Shown: positions 15,945 to 28,947 of the stretch, piece by piece
Position numbering within the stretch: the first letter of the stretch is position 1
Layout: each line of letters begins with the position of its first letter
NCBI GenBank assembly: GCA_964366355.1
Contig: CAYITO010000003.1
Location: 1-37,399 of the forward strand
Direction of reading: 5' to 3'
Source of the DNA: an uncultured archaeon
Lineage (GTDB): Archaea > Aenigmatarchaeota > Aenigmatarchaeia > CG10238-14 > SCSR01
Length of the DNA stretch: 37,399 nt
Notes under the pieces: generated by a model
Told to the model about the DNA's origin: nothing
Seen by the model: only the letters and a program-made list of their open reading frames with translations
Databases searched by the model: none
Program-made: the position numbers and the translations under genes

Positions 15945-16652
15945 CTATTTCGAAGAACTATGTTTTTTTATGAACAGGTCCTTGAAAAATTCTTCCTGCT
16001 CAGTTGCAATCTTTTTGCTTTGCTCTAGATGCAAAAGCGGCACCAAATGAGCTACTATCTTGTCCCTCTTCCAATCCTTTACGATTTCTTTGAATTCCAG
16101 TTTATCCTTGTTCAATCTAACCATCAACTCATCTATATTCTTCATTAATTTTTCAATCCTTATCTCTATATCCTCCTCATGCGTTACCACTGCATTCTGC
16201 AATTTCTCCTGCCACAATTGTCTCCTTTCAGTCTTCTTCTTTTCAACTGTCAATGCCTTCCTCAACGCATCCATTAGTTCATCCAAGGTAATCTGCCTTT
16301 TTGGAATTCTTTTCATCGGATAGCCAAGCTGAATCAACTTCGGATCTATCCCAAGTTCTTCAAATGGCTTAGGCTCCTTTGACATCTCATCAACATCCTC
16401 TTCATTCTCTGTAAAAATTGACAAATAATCCGACTTCAATCTCAGCAAAATTGCAGCAACGAAAACTATCTTTGCAGGAATCCTGAAATCAAGATCCTTG
16501 ACTGCATTGATGAATTTCAGGAAACTTTCGCTTAGTTTTGTCAAATCAATATTCCAAGGGTCTATGTTCTGGACATTTACAATATAGTAGATTATCTCCT
16601 CCCAATTTTCCTTTTCAACAATCATCTTCAATATGTTTTCTTCTTCTGTCAT
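15945..16652 (-). CDS. scpA: Segregation and condensation protein A (kleisin)
   Basis: ILKMIVEKENWEEIIYYIVNVQNIDPWNIDLTKLSESFLKFI...RIPAKIVFVAAILLRLKS. I place the start at ATG 16652-16650, which forms an ATGA overlap with the smc stop, rather than at the track start 16706. Confidence 0.85.
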   Translation of the reverse strand: MTEEENILKMIVEKENWEEIIYYIVNVQNIDPWNIDLTKLSESFLKFINAVKDLDFRIPAKIVFVAAILLRLKSDYLSIFTENEEDVDEMSKEPKPFEELGIDPKLIQLGYPMKRIPKRQITLDELMDALRKALTVEKKKTERRQLWQEKLQNAVVTHEEDIEIRIEKLMKNIDELMVRLNKDKLEFKEIVKDWKRDKIVAHLVPLLHLEQSKKIATEQEEFFKDLFIKKHSSSK

Positions 16653-19153
16653 TTGGACGGCATCTCCAAGCCAATAATCTTTGTCTCCGCCCTGTCCATT
16701 GTGCATCCGTATACTCTGTCACCAGATTTTATTGTCTGGTCGTTGTGAGTGATCATAATAAATTGCTCAGACTTTGACAATGATTTCACCAGCTCCGCAA
16801 GCTTCAAGCTATTTTCCTTGTCCAATGCGGCGTCAACTTCATCGAACATGTAGAATGGTGCAGGCTTGAATTTTTGTATTGCGAACAGGAATGCCAATGC
16901 AGCCAGAGTTTTCTCCCCTCCAGACATCGAATCTATGTTCAACAGCTTTTTGCCGGCAGGATTGGCTTCGATGATAAGTCCTGATTCTATATCCGCTGGA
17001 TTCTCCATTTCAAGTCTTGCAGTACCATGGGTCATCTTCTGATAGATTTCGTTGAAATTATTTCCAACTTCTGTCAAACACTTGTTGAAGACTCCCATTC
17101 TCCTTTGCTCAATCTGCTCTATCATGTCGATGACGGCCTTTTTCTCAATTAGTATCTTCTCATATTTCTCCTTGTATTGGTCAAACTCGCCTTTGAACTT
17201 CTCATATTCGCTTATAGCTTTCATATTAACCAGGCCTATTTCTTCAAGCTCCCTCTGCGTTTTCTTGATGAAATTCTCCAAAATGTGCAATTTCTCATCC
17301 ACATATTCTATTTGGCCATATTGTTGCAATTCGTTCTTTGCATTCTGCAATTCAGCCTCCAGCTTCGCCTTCTCTATGTTCGCAGTATTCAATTCTATCT
17401 CGAGATTGACTTTTCTTTCATGAGCTTTCCTCCTCTTCTGTCTCAATTCATCTACATCCCTTTCAGACGACACCCTCAATTTATCCAAGTCTATAAGTTC
17501 TTTCGTAGTTTCAGAAACAGCGTATTCCTTCAATTTTTTCTCAAGTGCAAATATCTCCTGCCTGACTGATACGATTTCCTGCTCTAACTCCTTTCTTCGT
17601 GCAGTGTAAGTTTCTATTTCTTTGCCGGTAGTGGTTTCAACAAATTTAGGATGAGATTTAATATAATAACCGCCTATCATGGCCCCAGAGCGCTCCACCA
17701 AATCCCCGTCCAAAGTAACCATTCGAGCTTTGCCTATTCCTATAATTTTGGCAGATTCCAAGTTTTCTATTACAAGTGTATTCCCAAAAACAAATTCTAT
17801 TGCGGACATGAACTTGCTGTCATATTTTATTAATTTGCTTGCAACATTGACGACGCCATTCTTTCCCAGAAGCCCATTGTCTCTAAATAGCATTGGTCTT
17901 ATTTTGTTCAAAGGCAGGAAAGTAGCTCTTCCAATTCTTTCTCTCTTCAGGTAATCTATGCAATAGCTGGCAACATTCTCGTCCTCAACAACTATGTCAT
18001 GCAAATGGCGTCCTGCGGCAACTTCTATCGCAATCCTATAGTTCTCAGGGACAGAAATCAAATTCGCTACAGTTCCCACCACTCCCCTCAAATTTAATCT
18101 CAAGACAGCCTGCACAGATCTCGGCATTTCCCCCGACAATTCAACCTTTCTTGATTCCAAAGCTCCAAGCTTTTCTACAAGGTTGTTTATCCTGTCAATC
18201 TCTCTTGCATCGGAGTCCATCTTGTCTTTTGCTATCATCAATTTCGAGCGTATCTCAGAAACTTCCTTTTCGATTTTAACCTTTTTTGATATTTCTATAA
18301 GCTTCCCAGCGACCTCCCTTATGCTCGACTCCCTTTTGTCAAGTTCAACTTCAATTTGGGCAATCTCCTCGTTTAGCTTTTTGTTCAAGTCCTCTTTCTT
18401 AACCAGGCTTTCTTCAATCCTTTTGATCTGGTCTTCGTATGTTGTTACTTTTTTATGTGCAAATGATGCCTTTAAAACAGTCAATTGGTTCTGCAAATTC
18501 TGAAACTTTATAGCAGCATTTCTTTCATCTTCCAATTTCTTGAAAATGTCATATCTTTGGTTGATTATTATTTCGGCTTCTTTCAATTTCTGGTCTACTG
18601 CATCCAAATCTTTCTGGGCTTTTTCCTTCTTGTCATTATATTCTGCAATTCCAGAAATCTCGTCTATGTAATAGCGTCTTTCAATAGGATTCATTTCAAT
18701 TATTTGTGTAACATCGCCCTGCAAAATTATGTTGTGACCATCTGGGTGTATTCTAGCCGAAGATAACAGTTCAAGGATTTTTTCTCTAGTAGTGGTTTTG
18801 CTGTTGATCTTGTATACAGATAGCCCATTCTTGCTGATTTTTCTAGTTATTGCAATCTCATTATCCTCAAAAGGGAATAGCTTCTGTGAATTATCCAGAT
18901 AAAGCGTTACCGCGGCGTATTCGGCAGCCGACTTGCCTTCCCCGCCATTGAAAATCAATTCATACAATCTATCTGCTCTTAAAGATTTAGCAGAAGATCT
19001 ACCCAATACAAACGCAATGGCATCCAAGATGTTTGATTTGCCCGAGCCGTTGGGACCGGCTATTACATTAAATCCTGGCAAAAATGGGATGGATATCTTC
19101 TTGTTGAAGCTCTTGAACCCCTGCAAAGTCATCCTGGTTATAGATGTGTTCAT
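16649..19153 (-). CDS. smc: SMC chromosome segregation ATPase, short-armed (834 aa)
   Basis: Walker A: GPNGSGKSN. Hinge: LRGVVGTVANLISVPENYRIAIEVAAGRHLHDIVVEDE...RATFLPLNKI. Signature plus Walker B: MSGGEKTLAALAFLFAIQKFKPAPFYMFDEVDAALD. Confidence 0.9.
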   Translation of the reverse strand: MNTSITRMTLQGFKSFNKKISIPFLPGFNVIAGPNGSGKSNILDAIAFVLGRSSAKSLRADRLYELIFNGGEGKSAAEYAAVTLYLDNSQKLFPFEDNEIAITRKISKNGLSVYKINSKTTTREKILELLSSARIHPDGHNIILQGDVTQIIEMNPIERRYYIDEISGIAEYNDKKEKAQKDLDAVDQKLKEAEIIINQRYDIFKKLEDERNAAIKFQNLQNQLTVLKASFAHKKVTTYEDQIKRIEESLVKKEDLNKKLNEEIAQIEVELDKRESSIREVAGKLIEISKKVKIEKEVSEIRSKLMIAKDKMDSDAREIDRINNLVEKLGALESRKVELSGEMPRSVQAVLRLNLRGVVGTVANLISVPENYRIAIEVAAGRHLHDIVVEDENVASYCIDYLKRERIGRATFLPLNKIRPMLFRDNGLLGKNGVVNVASKLIKYDSKFMSAIEFVFGNTLVIENLESAKIIGIGKARMVTLDGDLVERSGAMIGGYYIKSHPKFVETTTGKEIETYTARRKELEQEIVSVRQEIFALEKKLKEYAVSETTKELIDLDKLRVSSERDVDELRQKRRKAHERKVNLEIELNTANIEKAKLEAELQNAKNELQQYGQIEYVDEKLHILENFIKKTQRELEEIGLVNMKAISEYEKFKGEFDQYKEKYEKILIEKKAVIDMIEQIEQRRMGVFNKCLTEVGNNFNEIYQKMTHGTARLEMENPADIESGLIIEANPAGKKLLNIDSMSGGEKTLAALAFLFAIQKFKPAPFYMFDEVDAALDKENSLKLAELVKSLSKSEQFIMITHNDQTIKSGDRVYGCTMDRAETKIIGLEMPSK

Positions 19154-19687: not shown

Positions 19688-19782
19688 TGGGCCCAGTGGG
19701 ATTTGAACCCACGACACACTGGTTAAGAGCCAGCTGCTCTGCCATCCTGAGCTTTACCCACAACTTTAGTTGTTATGGGCCC
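19688..19782 (-). tRNA. tRNA-Lys(CUU): tRNA-Lys (anticodon CUU) with a ~21-nt non-canonical intron between the acceptor stem and the D stem
   Basis: Minus strand: GGGCCCA-TA-[ACAACTAAAGTTGTGGGTAAA]-GCTC AGGATGGCA GAGC A GCTGG CTCTTAA CCAGT GTGTC GTGGG TTCAAAT CCCAC TGGGCCC A. All four stems pair once the insert is removed. No encoded CCA. Confidence 0.85.
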
Positions 19783-21743: not shown

Positions 21744-22157
21744 ATGAGAAAATTAACTAAGATAGAAATAATTGCCGTAATGGTGCCTGTGTTAATCTGG
21801 TCTGTTGCTCTATATATGCTGTACGAGAATTACAGGTGCGATTACTGCCCGAAATATCCTGACCCTGAGTTGTACAATCTTGATGGTGAATGTAAGTTTT
21901 ATTCTTATGACAGATGCATCGCTTTATGCGAATTTACAAACATGGGGAAAAGGAATTTGACTGATATCAATCTGGATATAATTTACGATGTAAACCAGAC
22001 TGCTAGGCATGCAGAAGAATTATTACAGCCTAATGAAACAATTAAAGCTGATTTGGAAGTTCCTTGTAGAGATGATTATTTTATTTTTATCGCTTCTAAA
22101 GAAGCGTGGATTTTATATAAGCAAAATGCAGAATTAATAGAGAATGTGAATGACTGA
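21744..22157 (+). CDS. Small membrane-anchored Cys-rich protein; function unknown
   Basis: 137 aa. TM helix IIAVMVPVLIWSVALYMLY, then CDYC..C..C..C. Overlaps the next gene by 8 nt. Confidence 0.55.
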   Translation: MRKLTKIEIIAVMVPVLIWSVALYMLYENYRCDYCPKYPDPELYNLDGECKFYSYDRCIALCEFTNMGKRNLTDINLDIIYDVNQTARHAEELLQPNETIKADLEVPCRDDYFIFIASKEAWILYKQNAELIENVND

Positions 22158-22656
22158 AATAACTAAAGAAAGAGTATATCTTGATATAAACATCTTCCGT
22201 GAATGGTTCGTTAGAACAATTAAAGGCGATGCCACGCCCGTTTTCTATGTGGAATTTCTTTCTGAGCATACTGAAATTGAAAAACGCATATCAATTTTCA
22301 GCATTGCCGAACTGGTAGAGACTTTATTGAAAGAACCGGAACTGCAGGGATGGAAACTGACGAAAGAATGGATTTCCAGTTTAATAGAAATTTTCAAAGA
22401 CACTGTCAGCGCTAAAATAATAGAGGAAGATGAAGCCTACAAAGGCAAGTACAGAGGTTTTTATGTGTCGCCCAAAATTGTTGAATTCACTTATCTTTGC
22501 GGTGATCTGAAGGATTCTATTCATGTGGATATAGCAAGAACTAGCGATTTACTGTTAATTACAAAAGACGATAAAGTCGGTAGGGTTAAAGTTGTATATC
22601 CAAAGGTTGAAGGAATAAGAAGTTTAATAAGACGGTATGAAAAGAAAGAGAGGTAA
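22150..22656 (+). CDS. PIN-domain-like protein (possible VapC-type nuclease)
   Basis: 168 aa. Acidic residues are in the PIN order: VYLDINIF (D), SIAELVETL (E), IHVDIARTS (D), LLITKDDK (D). Confidence 0.45.
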   Translation: MTEITKERVYLDINIFREWFVRTIKGDATPVFYVEFLSEHTEIEKRISIFSIAELVETLLKEPELQGWKLTKEWISSLIEIFKDTVSAKIIEEDEAYKGKYRGFYVSPKIVEFTYLCGDLKDSIHVDIARTSDLLLITKDDKVGRVKVVYPKVEGIRSLIRRYEKKER

Positions 22657-23119: not shown

Positions 23120-24586
23120 ATGATAAAACTCTCTTTCTTCGGCGGGGTGAATGAGATAGGAGGCAACAAAATACTCCTTGAAGCCGACGGAACAAAAATC
23201 TTCCTAGACTTCGGCATGAGCTTCAACAAGCACACAAGCTACTGGGCGGAGTACATGACGCCTCGGAAGCTCAACGGCATAAATGATTTCATAGAGTTCG
23301 GAATGTTGCCGAAGATTGACGGCATCTACAGGAAAGACTACCTGCAGCATACAGGAATGAAATATGAAGATACTCCTGCGGTCGATGGTGTTCTTTTGAG
23401 CCACGGCCACATGGACCATGTGGGCTATGTCCATTTCCTCAGGGATGATATCCCGATATTCTGCAGCGAGGCAACTAAGATGATAATGAAAGCTATTCAG
23501 GATGTGGGTGCAGGGACGTTTAATGATTTGGTCCAGATAGCTACCAGCTTCCAGTTCAAACCAAAGAAGGACGGTAAAGGCCATTCAAGGGTATATGGTG
23601 AGGAGTCCTACAAGGACAGACCTGTCAACACTTTCACTTTCGGCAAGAGATTCAAGATAGGCAATCTTGAGATAGAGCCTGTTCATATTGACCATTCATT
23701 GCCTGGTGCTACCGCATTTATCATCCACACTTCAGAAGGTGCTGTCGTCTATACCGGGGATATAAGATTTCACGGCAGGAGGGCTGAACTGAGCGAGAAG
23801 TTTATTGAATCCGCAAGGAAGGCAGAGCCTGAGATACTGATCAGCGAAGGCACGAGGATAATGGAGAAGGACTGGGAGACTGAGGAGGATGTTGAAAGGA
23901 AGGCTGGCGAAGTGGTGAAGAAGACCAAGGAGCTTGCCATAGTCAATTTTCCCGGAAGGGATACGGACAGGCTGATTACTTTCCTTAATGTCGCCAAAGC
24001 CACGGGAAGGAAGCTTGCGATAGAGTCGAGGATAGCATATCTCCTGGAACTATTGAAAGGCACTGATTCAATACATGTGCCGTCTGTTGATGATGACAGT
24101 ATCAGAATTTACATGATGAGGAAGGGATGGGGGTTGATAGACAGGGTGGATTTCCCTGACGAGATAAGGAAGGGCGATTATGAAAAGTGGGAGCAGAAGT
24201 ACATGGGACATGATAATTTGGTCACGTGGAAAGACGTCAGGGACAGCCAGAAGGATTTCATATTCTACTGCAACTTCTTCCAGCTGAAGGAGCTCATAGA
24301 TGTCAGGCCCAAGGAAGGGAGCAACTACATAAGGTCTCTTGTGGAGCCTTTCAGCGAGGATATGGAGCTGGATGAGAAGAGGGTGAACAACTGGATGAAG
24401 CATTTCGGGCTGTATCCGATGCATCAGATACATGCTTCAGGACATGCTCCTGGGACTGAGATTAAGAGGATGATAGCTGAGATGAAGCCGAAGAAAGTTA
24501 TACCTGTACATACACAACATCCTAAGGAATTTAAGAAGATTGTTGGGAAAGAGACTAAGGTGGAATTTGCTAAGTTAAACGTATAA
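23120..24586 (+). CDS. rnj: Beta-CASP metallo-beta-lactamase ribonuclease, archaeal RNase J-like
   Basis: 488 aa. MIKLSFFGGVNEIGGNKILLEADG, DFGMSF, HxHxDH motif LLSHGHMDHVGY, IDHSLPGA, C-terminal HASGHA and VIPVHTQHP. Confidence 0.8.
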   Translation: MIKLSFFGGVNEIGGNKILLEADGTKIFLDFGMSFNKHTSYWAEYMTPRKLNGINDFIEFGMLPKIDGIYRKDYLQHTGMKYEDTPAVDGVLLSHGHMDHVGYVHFLRDDIPIFCSEATKMIMKAIQDVGAGTFNDLVQIATSFQFKPKKDGKGHSRVYGEESYKDRPVNTFTFGKRFKIGNLEIEPVHIDHSLPGATAFIIHTSEGAVVYTGDIRFHGRRAELSEKFIESARKAEPEILISEGTRIMEKDWETEEDVERKAGEVVKKTKELAIVNFPGRDTDRLITFLNVAKATGRKLAIESRIAYLLELLKGTDSIHVPSVDDDSIRIYMMRKGWGLIDRVDFPDEIRKGDYEKWEQKYMGHDNLVTWKDVRDSQKDFIFYCNFFQLKELIDVRPKEGSNYIRSLVEPFSEDMELDEKRVNNWMKHFGLYPMHQIHASGHAPGTEIKRMIAEMKPKKVIPVHTQHPKEFKKIVGKETKVEFAKLNV

Positions 24587-24615: not shown

Positions 24616-26478
24616 CTAGTTCATCCTACTTTTGAAATAATCTCTAGTCTCCTTGTCAACAAAATAAACGTAGCATCCTTTCATCCCACGGGTCATAAGA
24701 GTTCTGTAAGTGTTTTTTATTATTGCATCCGCTTTTTTATCTGCACCCTTTGGATGCTCTTTAAAGTCCTTCTTATATCCATGCAAAGATTTGTCTGTTT
24801 TTGCACGTTTATTCGGAGAAGTCACTATTTTTCCATTTCTTACTACTAAGTCTGGACCTATGATCACACCAACATAATCGACTTCAAGACCTTGACAAGT
24901 ATGAATACATCCTACTTCACTTACAGATTTCGGTGAAATTATCCAAACGTTTCCATCACTTGCGAGATTCCATCTCATCTCAAAGTCATATTCTGGAATT
25001 ATAATATCTTTTAGATTCTTATTCTTCTTACTAATCCAGTCCCAACAATACCCTGCGACTAGTCGAGCTTTATTATTGATTTCATTTTTCTTGAAAATTA
25101 AATCTCGTAAGTCGTTAGGCGATTCAATAATTGTGAAATCATATTTTATTCCTTCCAATGTCGTATTTGCCGTTTCTCTTATTTGGAGTGTGTTATCGAG
25201 CCATGCCAAATACCCATCTGAGCCATTACAACGAAATTGTGATTCTAGCTTTAGAGTCTGAACTTTTGCACCAATTTTATCAGCCCATTTCTCAATTTCT
25301 TCTTTTTCACCAATATCATCCCAGGTAACTTTTTGGTTTTCATCAATGAAAAATATCGAAGACTTTGATGCTTCAATTATTTCCTTTATCTGGTTTTCTC
25401 CTATATTCTTGAACATACCTGATTTTTCATTAAGTCTATGTGCTTCGTCTACTATAAGAGAATCAAAAGTATTAGTTTTACAATTTACAAAAGAGCCTGA
25501 GCTAGTAAACATGTTTGAAAACTGGGTTTTTCTAAGCGTACCAGTGAGTTTGCTTTCAAAGACTGCTCTAGGTGCAGAGTTTTTCGTAACATATCGGGTA
25601 TTTAATCCGAGTTTAGTAATTGCAACAAGCAAATTAATTGCTATTACTGATTTTCCAGTCCCGGGTCCTCCTTCTACAATTAAAACATTTTTATTGGTAT
25701 TACTAGATCTTTTTGCTAAAGCTAATGCAGTTTCATAGACTATTTTTTGATCGTCAATTAGAACAAACTCTTGATTTCCTTTAAGCATAGACGACAGACT
25801 ATCAGCAAGGTCTTTTGAAGGTCTTATTTCGCTGTTTTCAATTCTATAAAGAGTATTTCTCTTATCTCCAAATTTTACGTATTTAGCAATAAATTCTTGC
25901 AACTTTGATTTTTCACCTTTGCAGAAAACTGGTGCCTTTTGTAAATAATCGAAATAGAAAGTATTTCTAATGACATTGTTTTCAACATAATTGTGCAAAT
26001 ATGCACATGGTTCTAAACCTATTTTTCCTTCGTATACAATTACATTGAATCCTTGAAGTAGAGTTGAATAAGACCATGCTTGATATGATGGATGAAGTGC
26101 CTCGCTTGGTCCACGTTTAAAGTGAGTTAGAACCATTGCATCTTTTTCTGTGAGTTGAATGTCGGTCCATTGTTTTAGTTCGATAATTATAACTTTTTCT
26201 TGATGGTTTTCATCTTCTCCTGTAACGATAAAATCGATTCTGTTTTTTGTTCTTGCAATGGAATATTCAATAGCCACACCCGAATCGTCAGGTATCATAT
26301 TTGTATTCATTACATGATACATTGCATTACCAATAGAATTTGCCCAAGATTCATATTCAGAACTCCCAGGTTTCAAGTCTATATTTAATTTTTCTTTTAC
26401 ATATTCTCTAATTTTGTCTTCTATTCCGTTGGAAGCATCTTCTAGAAAACCAGTTTTTGTTGCTTTATAAACTATCAT
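24616..26478 (-). CDS. DUF2075-type P-loop helicase-like ATPase with N-terminal PD-(D/E)xK-like nuclease module
   Basis: Walker A: VLIVEGGPGTGKSVIAINLL. Walker B: SLIVDEAHRL. SF1 motif-VI-like CIHTCQGLEVDYVGVIIG. DUF2075-type tail YRTLMTRGMKGCYVYFVD. N-terminal D...E-x-K in RIDFIVTGEDENHQEKVIIIELKQW. I place the start at ATG 26478-26476 (MIVYKATK), 1 nt after the upstream stop; the track start is 26511. Confidence 0.8.
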   Translation of the reverse strand: MIVYKATKTGFLEDASNGIEDKIREYVKEKLNIDLKPGSSEYESWANSIGNAMYHVMNTNMIPDDSGVAIEYSIARTKNRIDFIVTGEDENHQEKVIIIELKQWTDIQLTEKDAMVLTHFKRGPSEALHPSYQAWSYSTLLQGFNVIVYEGKIGLEPCAYLHNYVENNVIRNTFYFDYLQKAPVFCKGEKSKLQEFIAKYVKFGDKRNTLYRIENSEIRPSKDLADSLSSMLKGNQEFVLIDDQKIVYETALALAKRSSNTNKNVLIVEGGPGTGKSVIAINLLVAITKLGLNTRYVTKNSAPRAVFESKLTGTLRKTQFSNMFTSSGSFVNCKTNTFDSLIVDEAHRLNEKSGMFKNIGENQIKEIIEASKSSIFFIDENQKVTWDDIGEKEEIEKWADKIGAKVQTLKLESQFRCNGSDGYLAWLDNTLQIRETANTTLEGIKYDFTIIESPNDLRDLIFKKNEINNKARLVAGYCWDWISKKNKNLKDIIIPEYDFEMRWNLASDGNVWIISPKSVSEVGCIHTCQGLEVDYVGVIIGPDLVVRNGKIVTSPNKRAKTDKSLHGYKKDFKEHPKGADKKADAIIKNTYRTLMTRGMKGCYVYFVDKETRDYFKSRMN

Positions 26479-26479
26479 T

Positions 26480-26842
26480 TTAAATCCCATTATACTTTTT
26501 GTTTGACCCACGTGTTTTACTAGCAGGATATTTTAAGTCGTTTTTCTTCATTTTTTTCTCAAATTCTATTGATAAGTCTATGTTATTCATTTGAGCCAAC
26601 CTCAATAGGAAATACAAAATATCTGCCATTTCTTCTGATATCTCCATTTTTTTATCAGGCTTTTCAAGCATTTCTTTAATTTGGTCCTGTGATTTGAACC
26701 TGAAATGTTCCAATAATTCAGATGATTCTGTTATTATGCCTATGGCCAAGTCCTTCGCATTGTGATACTGGTTCCAATCACGGTCTTCACAGAATTTCTT
26801 TACAGCATCCTTTAGTTCTTGTATAGTAGTTTGGGAGTCCAT
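26480..26842 (-). CDS. All-alpha NTP pyrophosphohydrolase, MazG / DCTPP1 (RS21-C6)-like
   Basis: 120 aa. FCEDRDWNQYHNAKDLAIGIITESSELLEHFRFKS follows the DCTPP1/MazG-like pattern F-x2-eRdW-x-qfH-x-p-x-nL...E-x-gEL-x-E-x-FqWk. Second metal-binding helix: EEMADILYFLLRLA. Confidence 0.75.
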   Translation of the reverse strand: MDSQTTIQELKDAVKKFCEDRDWNQYHNAKDLAIGIITESSELLEHFRFKSQDQIKEMLEKPDKKMEISEEMADILYFLLRLAQMNNIDLSIEFEKKMKKNDLKYPASKTRGSNKKYNGI

Positions 26843-26892
26843 ATTTCAAGTATAGTTCTTAACTTTAAATTATTTCAGAATCAGATATAAAA

Positions 26893-27105
26893 ATGACCCA
26901 AATGGCAGGCGAATTCAAGAGAGACTACCTCCCTATAAACTCCATCAGCCTTCTGGGAAGCTGCGAGACAAAATTCCTACAATCAGCTTTAGGGGAGCTG
27001 GAAGTCACTCCAGTGATGCAGATAGGCAAGGAAAAGCACGCAGAACTGACAGAAGGCCTGCCCACAATCTCAATGAAGGAAACCATAAAAGAAAACGGGA
27101 CTTAA
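26893..27105 (+). CDS. Short GC-rich ORF, possibly a gene fragment; function unknown
   Basis: 70 aa, ~50% GC. LLGSCETKFLQSALGE...QIGKEKHAEL is faintly reminiscent of Cas4/RecB-type PD-(D/E)xK N-termini but is far too short to be a complete domain. Confidence 0.3.
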   Translation: MTQMAGEFKRDYLPINSISLLGSCETKFLQSALGELEVTPVMQIGKEKHAELTEGLPTISMKETIKENGT

Positions 27106-27302
27106 GTTCTGTATATTTGCGAGCCGAAGTTGAATTAAAATCTTGAATTTAGATAGTTATCCTGTTTGTCCAGTTATTTTATGCTTTTCGCTTTTTGCAA
27201 ATCAGCATCAGAATATCTCTTATGCCAACTAAATTTTTGAATATCTCCTTCCCAATGCAGAAAACCCTATACCACCCTTTCCAGAAATTCATTTTATAGC
27301 TT

Positions 27303-27527
27303 TTGGTGGGCTTTATGCGACAAAAGGGGCGATTAAAATTAACCGAAGGGGACAAGGAGTTCGTAAAAGACCTGTCTCGGAAGATTATTCTCAGAACCTA
27401 CGTAATGAATTCTGCCAGCAGACCGAGAACATTGCTGGGCAAGCTGAAAAGCCTCTTCTTTAAGAAATCCTACAAAGCACCTGTGTTGGATATATTGGAT
27501 GCTGTGGTAAAGCATCAGGGGAAGTGA
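27303..27527 (+). CDS. Hypothetical small basic protein
   Basis: 74 aa with a TTG start (ATG at codon 5). No recognisable motif. Confidence 0.3.
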   Translation: MVGFMRQKGRLKLTEGDKEFVKDLSRKIILRTYVMNSASRPRTLLGKLKSLFFKKSYKAPVLDILDAVVKHQGK

Positions 27528-27540
27528 TACTCTTGGGGTT

Positions 27541-27816
27541 ATGTTCTGTCCATTATGTGCGACTGCAATGAACTATGACGGATTTGAAGACATGTACAGA
27601 TGTGCCAAGACCGACTTTCACCCAAAGAGGAAGGTGGCGATTGTTGCTGGCGTGACTAAGTTCCAAGGCAGTGTCCTCCGGGAGAATGAGGACATCCACA
27701 AGTCGTTGGTGCTGGTCATACTTAAAGAATCCAGCAGGGGAAGCCATGACGTGATCAGAAGTTCCGAGGTGACGGTACGCACAAGGGTGGTTGATTTGAA
27801 GCTTGATACCGTTTAG
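27541..27816 (+). CDS. Hypothetical small protein with N-terminal CxxC...C zinc-ribbon-like motif
   Basis: 91 aa. A sampled 60-nt line is 53% GC. MFCPLCATAMNYDGFEDMYRC. Confidence 0.35.
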   Translation: MFCPLCATAMNYDGFEDMYRCAKTDFHPKRKVAIVAGVTKFQGSVLRENEDIHKSLVLVILKESSRGSHDVIRSSEVTVRTRVVDLKLDTV

Positions 27817-28245: not shown

Positions 28246-28476
28246 TCACACGGTTACAGGACTAGCATAGACTATCGTATCGCCACGTACCAGAAGAGTC
28301 CCGAGTTTCAGCTTGTTTTCGCCGTTCTTCTTCACTTCAGCTTCGTCAATCCAAAGATTCAGATGCAAGTCGAGAGCCTTCAAAATGCCAGTGACCTCCT
28401 CGCCGTTCTTCAGTTTTATGATTATCTTCTTGCCTTTGGCTCTGTCTAGCGCGTCTATCGGCCTGTCTGTCATCAA
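28246..28476 (-). CDS. Sm-like archaeal protein (SmAP/LSm)
   Basis: 76 aa. Sm1 motif KIIIKLKNGEEVTGILKALDLHLNLWIDEAE and Sm2 motif LGTLLVRGDTIVYASP. Confidence 0.9.
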   Translation of the reverse strand: MMTDRPIDALDRAKGKKIIIKLKNGEEVTGILKALDLHLNLWIDEAEVKKNGENKLKLGTLLVRGDTIVYASPVTV

Positions 28477-28566: not shown

Positions 28567-28947
28567 ATGGCTGTATGGCATGGGGAACGCGGAAGGACAC
28601 CGACAGGCGGAAAGATAGTTTCTACTCGGAAGAAAAGGAAGTATGAGCTGGGTTCTTTGCCGTTGCTCACAAAATTGGGAAGCGAAAAGCGAATCACAGT
28701 TATGGGGAAAGGCGGAAATAGCAAGGTCAAGGCAGCAAATGCGGAATTTGTCAATGTTGTTGATAAGAAGAGCAATATTGTGAAAAAAGTTAAAATTCTG
28801 GGCATTTTGGAAAATCCAGCCAACCTGCACTATGTTAGAAGGAACATTATTACAAAAGGAACTGTGGTAAATACCGAGATGGGAAAGGCAAAAATTACAT
28901 CGCGCCCGAGTCAGCACGGCGTGGTTAGCGGAATCTTAGTCGAATAA
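28567..28947 (+). CDS. rps8e: Ribosomal protein eS8 (S8e)
   Basis: 126 aa. GERGRTPTGGKIVSTRKKRKYELG...ENPANLHYVRRNIITKG...AKITSRPSQHGVVSGILVE. TATA-like aagaatataaatac lies ~25 nt upstream. Confidence 0.9.
   Translation: MAVWHGERGRTPTGGKIVSTRKKRKYELGSLPLLTKLGSEKRITVMGKGGNSKVKAANAEFVNVVDKKSNIVKKVKILGILENPANLHYVRRNIITKGTVVNTEMGKAKITSRPSQHGVVSGILVE

Follow-up and report, generated by a model that had tools for sequence, protein, structure and literature searches.

Nhi (SERP2475) of Staphylococcus epidermidis is a single protein in which a PD-(D/E)xK nuclease is combined with a DUF2075 helicase; it blocks the accumulation of phage DNA, and both of its activities are needed (10.1101/776245). Nhi-like, a protein of B. 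cereus FSL H8-0482 with the Nhi architecture and no sequence identity to Nhi, was verified by Millman et al. in 2022 (10.1101/2022.05.11.491447), and phages escape it by inactivating a phage DNA methylase (Stokar-Avihail et al., 10.1101/2022.08.27.505566). Table S2 of Millman et al. also lists, as one of 45 candidate systems from a defence-island pipeline, an entry called 'Pyrophosphatase', in which a pyrophosphatase accompanies a DUF2075 protein (10.1101/2022.05.11.491447). Here, we describe a pair of this kind from an uncultured archaeon of the Aenigmatarchaeota (assembly GCA_964366355.1), located at positions 24,616 to 26,842 of contig CAYITO010000003.1; the whole stretch analysed, positions 1 to 37,399 of that contig, is referred to as the window. 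The pairing proved to be real and widespread, and our best reading is that it forms a two-gene variant, not yet validated, of the Nhi-like type of nuclease-helicase defence; this interpretation is reasonable but unproven.

For the 'Pyrophosphatase' candidate, neither a name nor a mechanism was given, and the main text does not mention it (10.1101/2022.05.11.491447). Its entry SG192 (Bacillus firmus LK28) is marked 'x', and SG193 (B. thuringiensis Lr3/2) is marked 'Cloning failed' (10.1101/2022.05.11.491447). The 'x' was read as tested but not verified, because the Nhi-like entry is marked 'v' and the text gives 21 of the 45 candidates as protective. Literature searches combining DUF2075 or Schlafen with MazG, or MazG with defence, returned no paper that describes the pair, which surfaced in supplementary Table S2 only. 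The initial annotation of the window had held that the pairing was not a named system; it is indeed unnamed and uncharacterised, but it had already been noticed, and tested, as the 2022 candidate. The observation made in that annotation was confirmed, and its interpretation is partly supported.

A recurrent two-gene operon

The cassette consists of two genes and a short upstream spacer:

24616..26478, minus strand: DUF2075/SLFN-helicase gene, 620 amino acids (aa), with an N-terminal nuclease-like domain and a superfamily 1B (SF1B) core; start ATG at 26478-26476
26480..26842, minus strand: MazG-like/DCTPP1-type pyrophosphatase gene, 120 aa; stop at 26480-26482
26843..26892, minus strand: AT-rich spacer of 50 nucleotides (nt) 5' of the pyrophosphatase gene, with TATA-like runs (from reading the sequence only)

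Both open reading frames (ORFs) lie where they had initially been placed. The helicase start was assigned to the ATG at 26478-26476 because homologs begin with MIVY or MIIY, and the spacer between this codon and the pyrophosphatase stop is therefore 1 nt, as was checked. The 50-nt spacer presumably contains the promoter of the operon.

More than 8000 database proteins match the helicase, and the best 120 of these align over their full length with 74-90% identity and belong largely to Patescibacteria (Candidate Phyla Radiation, CPR), Omnitrophica and similar lineages. At 50% clustering, the family comprises 749 representatives at E <= 1e-30. A species-level scan, with one genome for each GTDB species, returned 80 helicase loci that are 52-77% identical to the window copy and are spread across phyla and domains (Patescibacteria, the DPANN archaea Woesearchaeota and Micrarchaeota, Bacteroidota, Xanthomonadales, Clostridia, Bacillaceae, Elusimicrobiota and others). 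When these loci were scored with a profile of the pyrophosphatase, its position was as follows:

65 of 80 loci: directly upstream on the same strand (24 with a 4-nt overlap, 25 with a gap of 1-5 nt)
2 of 80 loci: directly downstream
1 of 80 loci: 4.8 kb away
10 of 80 loci: absent, mostly in Bacillaceae
2 of 80 loci: no upstream sequence to score

The genes are thus adjacent in 67 of the 78 testable loci, far above chance, and an accidental adjacency was rejected. All three independent metagenome contexts examined carry the pair as well. The nearest relatives of the window pyrophosphatase are DPANN archaeal proteins of 118-122 aa with 63-81% identity, and a reciprocal look-up found a DUF2075 gene immediately downstream in four of four. 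The two genes form a recurrent two-gene module, and the recurrence of the pairing in other genomes, on which the initial reading of the cassette depended, was borne out in each of these comparisons. A third conserved gene was sought around the pair and none was found, the commonest neighbour family being present in 8 of about 80 loci.

Fusions of the pyrophosphatase with the helicase were sought among ten unusually long or rearranged representatives, and none was found. These ten include proteins with S24 tails (see below), one fusion to a PIF1-like helicase (1068 aa) and one protein in which Sel1 repeats replace the nuclease-like head (P0187 and P0219). On an Aenigmarchaeota contig (L097, 2464-4238), the DUF2075 gene comes as two ORFs (181 and 419 aa), which points to a frameshift or a pseudogene, and a second, classical MazG gene (PF03819; 1582-1911) lies divergently upstream of the MazG-like gene.

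Domains and motifs of the two proteins

The predicted domains and motifs map to the following positions:

24655..25692, minus strand: helicase/ATPase core, aa 263-608 (Pfam match boundaries)
25648-25671, minus strand: Walker A, GGPGTGKS (invariant columns G270-S277)
25438-25449, minus strand: Walker B, DEAH (invariant columns D344-H347)
25774..26478, minus strand: N-terminal domain, aa 1-235, candidate RecB-like PD-(D/E)xK nuclease (model and motifs)
26068..26268, minus strand: putative nuclease motifs E71, D82, E100-L-K102 and Q133-x-x-x-Y137 (conservation)
26621..26728, minus strand: pyrophosphatase metal-binding core, E39, E42, E45 ... E71, D74 (conservation and RS21-C6 alignment)

The large protein matches the SLFN-g3_helicase/DUF2075 family PF09848 over the entire profile (1-354 of 354; 362.1 bits against a cutoff of 24, E 4.5e-108). 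Its AlphaFold model has a predicted local distance difference test score (pLDDT) of 77, and the best Foldseek matches of this model were RecD, SLFN11, RecD2, Dna2, Dda and Upf1 (E 1e-10 to 1e-6). Because these are the closest solved folds, the protein is classed as an SF1B DUF2075 helicase. The Schlafen-related P-loop core that had been proposed for it was upheld by the Pfam match, the invariant Walker motifs and the structural matches alike.

The N-terminal domain is likely to be a nuclease, judging from motifs and topology, on which the call rests because fold and profile searches gave nothing significant. In 47 diverse N-terminal domains, E71, D82, E100-x-K102 and Q133xxxY137 do not vary, and across 84 full-length homologs their conservation is 90% or more. 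In the model of the domain (pLDDT 85; predicted template modelling score 0.84), secondary structure elements follow an alpha-beta-beta-beta-alpha-beta order, D82 begins a strand (81-88), E100-L-K102 ends a strand (94-102), and Q133xxxY137 lies on the next helix. The motif set on such a modelled scaffold corresponds to the RecB-type PD-(D/E)xK pattern. A fold search of the PDB and of viral models returned no significant match, the best being EndoMS/NucS (5gkj; E 0.056, probability 0.57), with Can2 at E ~1; nor did the domain match Pfam or, in a profile search, PDB sequences. In hhalign comparisons, the domain aligned with the N-terminus of PDC-S41, a candidate in the PADLOC collection (probability 67%, E 5e-5), and weakly with that of the verified Nhi-like protein (probability 17%, E 1.4e-3), with the motifs in register in both cases; the probability against a PDDEXK_1 protein was 2%. 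The restriction-endonuclease-like module of the initial annotation therefore stands as far as its near-invariant D...ExK motif is concerned (47-84 homologs), whereas the fold itself was not confirmed by structure searches, including those made with a predicted structure of the N-terminal domain.

The small protein matches the MazG-like family PF12643 (40.8 bits against a cutoff of 27, E 2.6e-10), and PDB sequence matches include 4qgp (E 2.7e-17), mouse RS21-C6 (2a3q, E 6.6e-16) and human DCTPP1 (7mu5, E 1.1e-12). Residues E39, E42, E45, E71 and D74, with a conservation of 90% or more among 71 partner proteins, align with E63, E66, E69, E95 and D98 of mouse RS21-C6. The likeness to DCTPP1/RS21-C6 that had been noted was thus upheld, and catalytic residues were found to be conserved in both proteins, across 71 pyrophosphatases and 84 full-length helicases. 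The pyrophosphatase is a minimal catalytic domain of 98-120 aa in this family, without a regulatory extension.

Of the 80 species-level helicases, 15 carry a LexA/UmuD-like Peptidase_S24 domain at the C-terminus (L002, L003, L006, L010, L011, L021, L041, L045, L048, L050, L053, L054, L058, L066 and L071), and so do most of the closest database matches and the family members P0121, P0183 and P0248. These domains carry a GxSM serine motif, a conserved lysine and an AAxG-type site resembling the LexA cleavage site, and the pyrophosphatase is present in all 14 S24-bearing loci that have upstream sequence. The sequence features suggest that some S24-bearing versions may be armed or released by RecA-stimulated self-cleavage. 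The window helicase has no S24 domain: it ends at residue 620, 29 nt before the next gene.

Partner exchange, mobility and genomic surroundings

The two proteins differ in their affinities. CPR helicases that are 75-78% identical to the one in the window are paired with pyrophosphatases just 38-39% identical to its partner (L001-L003), and DPANN pyrophosphatases about 70% identical to that of the window are paired with helicases of 55%, 36%, 33% and about 28% identity (L094-L097). Across all pairs, the identity matrices of the two proteins nevertheless correlate (Mantel r 0.49, reached in 0 of 1000 permutations). By these comparisons, partners have been exchanged individually while the partnership was kept at the family level; the pyrophosphatase tracks the host (DPANN) lineage, and the helicase, of a CPR-bacterial type, moves horizontally. 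The initial annotation had described the cassette as a self-contained insert. It does behave as a recurrent, self-contained two-gene module, but because a DPANN-type pyrophosphatase is joined to a CPR-type helicase, the picture of a single insert is too simple.

An association with mobile elements was found in plasmid copies and in one phage record. Mobility also fits the identity of 52-78% seen across phyla and domains, and the GC content of the cassette, the lowest in the window. The pair is carried by a Halalkalicoccus plasmid, where it is annotated as 'nucleotide pyrophosphohydrolase' and 'DUF2075 domain-containing protein', and copies also lie on a Hymenobacter plasmid and on a Methanosphaera plasmid, the latter with the helicase only. 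The record of Microcystis phage Mwe-JY31 (L086, 3843-6049) contains the pair with 60% identity in the helicase and 42% in the pyrophosphatase, the only close match in 50,697 phage records. This record is 22 kb long, was deposited as a complete phage genome and has all of its genes annotated as hypothetical; it may represent a true phage or a captured island. On Marivirga plasmid p1 (L087, 6166-8604), the helicase aligns in four pieces, with a fragment annotated as a hypothetical protein, and this copy is probably decayed; the 'nucleotide pyrophosphohydrolase' beside it has an annotated length of 204 aa, more than is usual.

Within five genes of the pair, a defence- or restriction-type gene lies in at least 29 of 81 loci, a lower bound and a raw count given without a background rate. 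The most frequent neighbours, at eight loci each, are Fic proteins matching SoFic (2e-112) and PLD-helicase-DUF3427 proteins matching type IV methyl-directed restriction enzymes (2.3e-177). They are followed by HNH proteins and NUDIX proteins of PDC-S07 (five loci each), C5 DNA methyltransferases (four), a second DUF2075 paralog identified as PDC-S41 (1.8e-288; four) and RhuM/PDC-S05 (three), with DISARM DrmD (E 0) and a TmtA/MkoA-like giant at one locus each. HepT, AbiEii-type ATPases, Mrr and NgoFVII-type nucleases were also found, as were Bro-N, FtsK and a Y1 transposase. DUF2075 NTPases beside DUF3427 enzymes had been noted earlier (PMC6765204). The proposed association with defence genes therefore holds in so far as known or candidate defence genes recur nearby, but many contexts are instead housekeeping- or repair-like. 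The PDC-S41 paralog lies directly downstream of the pair in L003 (8430-10406), L015 (7878-9851) and L021 (4396-6372), and nearby on the opposite strand, not adjacent, in L026 (3935-5917); such tandem helicase-nuclease genes may cooperate or serve as alternatives.

In the window, the cassette has a GC content of 33.4%, compared with 38.7% for the window as a whole, which places it in the lowest 0.9% of segments of the same size (about 2.2 kb); GC at third codon positions of the DUF2075 gene is 0.243. It is flanked by 46.4% GC on one side (the RNase J-like gene) and by 39-48% GC. The cassette is thus more AT-rich than its flanks, as had been stated, and the "GC-rich blocks" described on both sides are GC-rich in relative terms only. 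Other features of the window are:

23120-24586: RNase J/aCPSF-like metallo-beta-lactamase gene, 29 nt from the helicase end
28246-28476, minus strand: LSm protein gene
28567-28947: ribosomal protein S8e gene
19688-19759, minus strand: tRNA (Rfam, 45.7 bits; not reported by ARAGORN)

The window also encodes TatD and an SMC homolog of only 834 aa (16649-19153). SMC proteins are usually about 1100-1200 aa long, and the short form fits a reduced genome. The gene content of the window is archaeal, a look-up of exact proteins places it in Hainich groundwater metagenomes of the 0.1 um size fraction, and together with the DPANN affinities of the small protein this suggests a DPANN archaeon. No integrase, repeat or tRNA was found within 4.8 kb of the cassette borders, the tRNA listed above being the only one in the window, and a search for insertion signatures turned up no direct repeats at the flanks that were convincing. 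The cassette is bracketed almost exactly by a 19-nt inverted repeat that is imperfect (79% complementary; 24630-24648 and 26862-26880) and has its left arm inside the 3' end of the helicase gene; this repeat is probably due to chance in AT-rich DNA. A relative without the cassette was sought through the exact LSm protein; only short contigs of the same Hainich groundwater population, with the identical arrangement, were recovered, and no empty site was among them.

The 1.4 kb from the cassette to the LSm gene is largely taken up by three small plus-strand ORFs (70, 74 and 91 aa; 26893-27816) that match no family. On the Hainich contigs L090 and L091, gene calls likewise include two of the three, or a shorter version. 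These ORFs may have been left over from a former neighbour, or they may be small uncharacterised genes. About 2 kb from the cassette, two overlapping plus-strand ORFs (21744-22157, 137 aa, no match; 22150-22656, 168 aa, a weak PIN-domain match, E 7e-4) form a possible pair of the toxin-antitoxin type.

Function of the pair and its place among known systems

We favour, tentatively and with somewhat less than even confidence, the view that the pair is an accessory, horizontally exchanged nucleic-acid defence operon of the Nhi-like type, in which a nuclease-helicase effector is joined to DCTPP1-like removal of non-canonical deoxynucleoside triphosphates (dNTPs). This view builds on what the computations established, namely the gene arrangement and its recurrence, the intact catalytic motifs, the SF1B fold, the DCTPP1 relationship and the defence-type neighbourhoods. 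In the proposed mechanism, the SF1B (DUF2075/Schlafen-type) ATPase of the large protein would load on invader DNA and translocate along it, and the N-terminal RecB-like PD-(D/E)xK domain would cut that DNA. The DCTPP1-like pyrophosphatase would hydrolyse non-canonical dNTPs, most likely 5-modified deoxycytidine triphosphate (dCTP), to the monophosphate. Such hydrolysis would starve viruses that build their DNA from modified nucleotides, and it would prevent the host DNA from taking up modified nucleotides, among them those set free when DNA is degraded, so that self could be distinguished from invader. The nuclease activity, the substrates of both enzymes, their cooperation and the immune role are what we infer here. 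The mechanism of the initial annotation, in which modified dNTPs are removed and nucleic acid is degraded, is plausible in this light and has circumstantial support.

A circumstantial link of the family to modified cytosine comes from three independent lines. The first is biochemical, because DCTPP1 enzymes favour 5-modified dCTP. Another lies in the neighbourhoods, since type IV methyl-directed enzymes and C5 methyltransferases recur beside the pair. Finally, sensitivity of phages to Nhi-like depends on their methylase (10.1101/2022.08.27.505566).

Several observations weigh against a defence role. The only experimental test of the pair family, SG192, was negative: the pair, cloned under its native promoter, gave no protection when confronted with phages drawn from a set of 26 (12 of E. 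coli and 14 of B. subtilis) (10.1101/2022.05.11.491447), although Millman et al. cautioned that unverified systems may defend under other conditions (10.1101/2022.05.11.491447). The shuffling of partners, as read from the identities, argues against a tight, specific complex or interface. The helicase varies less than is usual for an immune gene, given that the CPR bacterial copies and the DPANN archaeal one are 75-78% identical; the nuclease fold of its N-terminal domain was not confirmed structurally; and the pyrophosphatase matched nothing in PADLOC. The number of loci with defence-type neighbours is a raw count, and in small CPR and DPANN genomes many contexts are housekeeping- or repair-like, with NrdR, dCMP deaminase and SHMT in L003, RadA/Rad51 and RadC in L094, and exonuclease VII in L095.

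Some of these points lead to the main rival, genome maintenance rather than immunity, which we regard as rather unlikely. The pyrophosphatase would clean the dNTP pool, the nuclease-helicase would process stalled forks, damaged DNA or misincorporated bases, and the S24 versions would be switched on by RecA-stimulated self-cleavage in an SOS-type manner. The LexA/UmuD-like tails, found in 15 of 80 homologs and most of the closest matches, point in this direction, but the window copy has none. Neighbours with roles in repair or nucleotide metabolism do likewise (RmuC and NUDIX at five loci each, RadA/Rad51, RadC, exonuclease VII, NrdR and dCMP deaminase); the RmuC loci, however, come mostly from syntenic Sediminibacterium relatives and so represent few independent events, and defence islands often contain RadC, NUDIX (PDC-S07) and RmuC as well. 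Strong sequence conservation of the helicase, retention of the pair in reduced CPR and DPANN genomes, and the negative phage test of SG192 also speak for a maintenance function, and the mammalian relatives have roles in guarding the genome: SLFN11 acts at stressed forks, and DCTPP1 sanitises the nucleotide pool (PMC6765204). Such a function is harder to reconcile with the patchy distribution, the transfer across domains, the copies on plasmids and in a phage record, and neighbourhoods that differ at almost every locus.

Immunity could also be exerted by depletion of dNTPs, in the manner of abortive infection. The DUF2075 protein would then sense viral DNA or replication intermediates, and the activated pyrophosphatase would drain canonical dNTPs, dCTP especially, as in the dCTP deaminase and dGTPase defences or SAMHD1. 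Nucleotide-depleting defences are known (10.1101/2022.08.27.505566), and the full catalytic set of the pyrophosphatase and the tight coupling of the genes would suit this scheme, which is improbable nonetheless: the enzyme is a minimal domain of 98-120 aa with no regulatory extension, a specific activating interaction is hard to square with partners that are exchanged between lineages, the scheme offers no explanation for the conserved nuclease motifs of the large protein, and about 10 of 78 family members, mostly in Bacillaceae, have no pyrophosphatase. Least probable, to the point of being very unlikely, is a function for a mobile element or virus, such as a helper of replication or recombination, exclusion of competitors or counter-defence, of which the chromosome would carry a remnant. 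The Mwe-JY31 record, the copies on several plasmids, the neighbours Bro-N, FtsK, Y1 transposase and RhuM, and the 1.4 kb of small unassignable ORFs beside the window cassette are consistent with it, and MazG-type genes are common in phages; yet a single close match among 50,697 phage records, and a majority of chromosomal copies without integrase, repeats or tRNA at their borders, as in the window, speak against it.

If the favoured defence reading is extended to its limit, the family could be seen as a pan-prokaryotic immune module against modified DNA, a proposal that is a long shot. The DCTPP1-like enzyme would clear modified dCTP, of viral origin or from DNA breakdown, and leave the host genome unmodified, and the Schlafen-type nuclease-helicase would destroy DNA that bears the modification. 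The pyrophosphatase would be a fixed lineage anchor, for which helicase-nuclease variants would be swapped in horizontally, even between CPR and DPANN, and in some versions a LexA-like self-cleaving tail would arm the protein once RecA is activated. One ancient antiviral operon would, in addition, be the ancestor of both eukaryotic DCTPP1 and the Schlafen helicase domain, each derived from one of its halves.

A working defence of this type would represent a new logic for prokaryotic immunity, in which sanitising of the dNTP pool is coupled to a nuclease-helicase. It would also provide an experimental handle on human DCTPP1 and the Schlafen helicase domain, with their links to nucleotide-pool control, replication stress and antiviral restriction. 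The module is among the few of defence type that are common to ultra-small CPR bacteria and DPANN archaea at high identity, which bears on gene flow and virus pressure. If it is instead a repair module, its retention in reduced genomes would be accounted for, and caution would be needed against calling every DUF2075 gene a defence gene. In either case, the negative test of SG192, reported in a supplementary table only, is worth revisiting with phages that have modified DNA.

Compared with the known systems, the partner shuffling, the S24 tails in many homologs and the circumstantial link to modified cytosine are new points. Both Nhi and Nhi-like have an N-terminal nuclease followed by a DUF2075 SF1B helicase, as predicted for the window protein, and the nuclease motifs of Nhi-like align with those of the window protein. 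They differ in being single-gene systems without a pyrophosphatase, and belong to other families within the DUF2075 superfamily. Membership in Nhi was rejected, since the PADLOC Nhi profile matched with E 2.4e-11 over residues 236-418 only (profile 179-331 of 470), and so was membership in Nhi-like, with 25% BLASTP identity over 149 residues around the P-loop (E 3e-4) and an N-terminal hhalign probability of 17%. PDC-S41, a single-gene candidate, resembles the window protein in being a DUF2075 protein of comparable length (about 658 aa) whose N-terminal domain is homologous (hhalign probability 67%), but it is a distinct paralog without a pyrophosphatase of its own; here, too, membership was rejected, the window protein matching in two partial stretches with E 1.9e-15 compared with 1.8e-288 for true members.

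The group 3 Schlafen proteins (SLFN5/11/13/14) have the Pfam helicase family PF09848 in common with the window protein, and SLFN11 and SLFN14 are among its best structural matches. The Schlafen tRNase core is absent from the window protein, which has a different nuclease-like head instead. Recently described bacterial Schlafen defences concern the RNase domain and not a helicase of the PF09848 type (PMC13056530). DCTPP1/RS21-C6 and the archaeal protein 4qgp belong, like the window pyrophosphatase, to the all-alpha MazG-like fold family and have the same metal-binding glutamates and aspartate, as well as the N-terminal RDW..H and C-terminal N..KYP signatures, whereas the mammalian protein is about 50 residues longer and is a stand-alone housekeeping enzyme.

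The closest relationship is to the 'Pyrophosphatase' candidate. SG193, by its description, has a 619-aa DUF2075 protein of different look, with the pyrophosphatase listed second. SG192 differs from the window pair in being bacterial (Bacillaceae) and in having a shorter pyrophosphatase (98 aa), whereas the window copy is archaeal with a helicase of CPR-bacterial type. SG192 is 52% identical to the window pair in the DUF2075 protein, over the 399 residues available (E 2e-139), and 49% identical in the pyrophosphatase (E 1e-25). Both the two genes and their order, pyrophosphatase followed by DUF2075, are the same, and the window pair belongs to the SG192 family.

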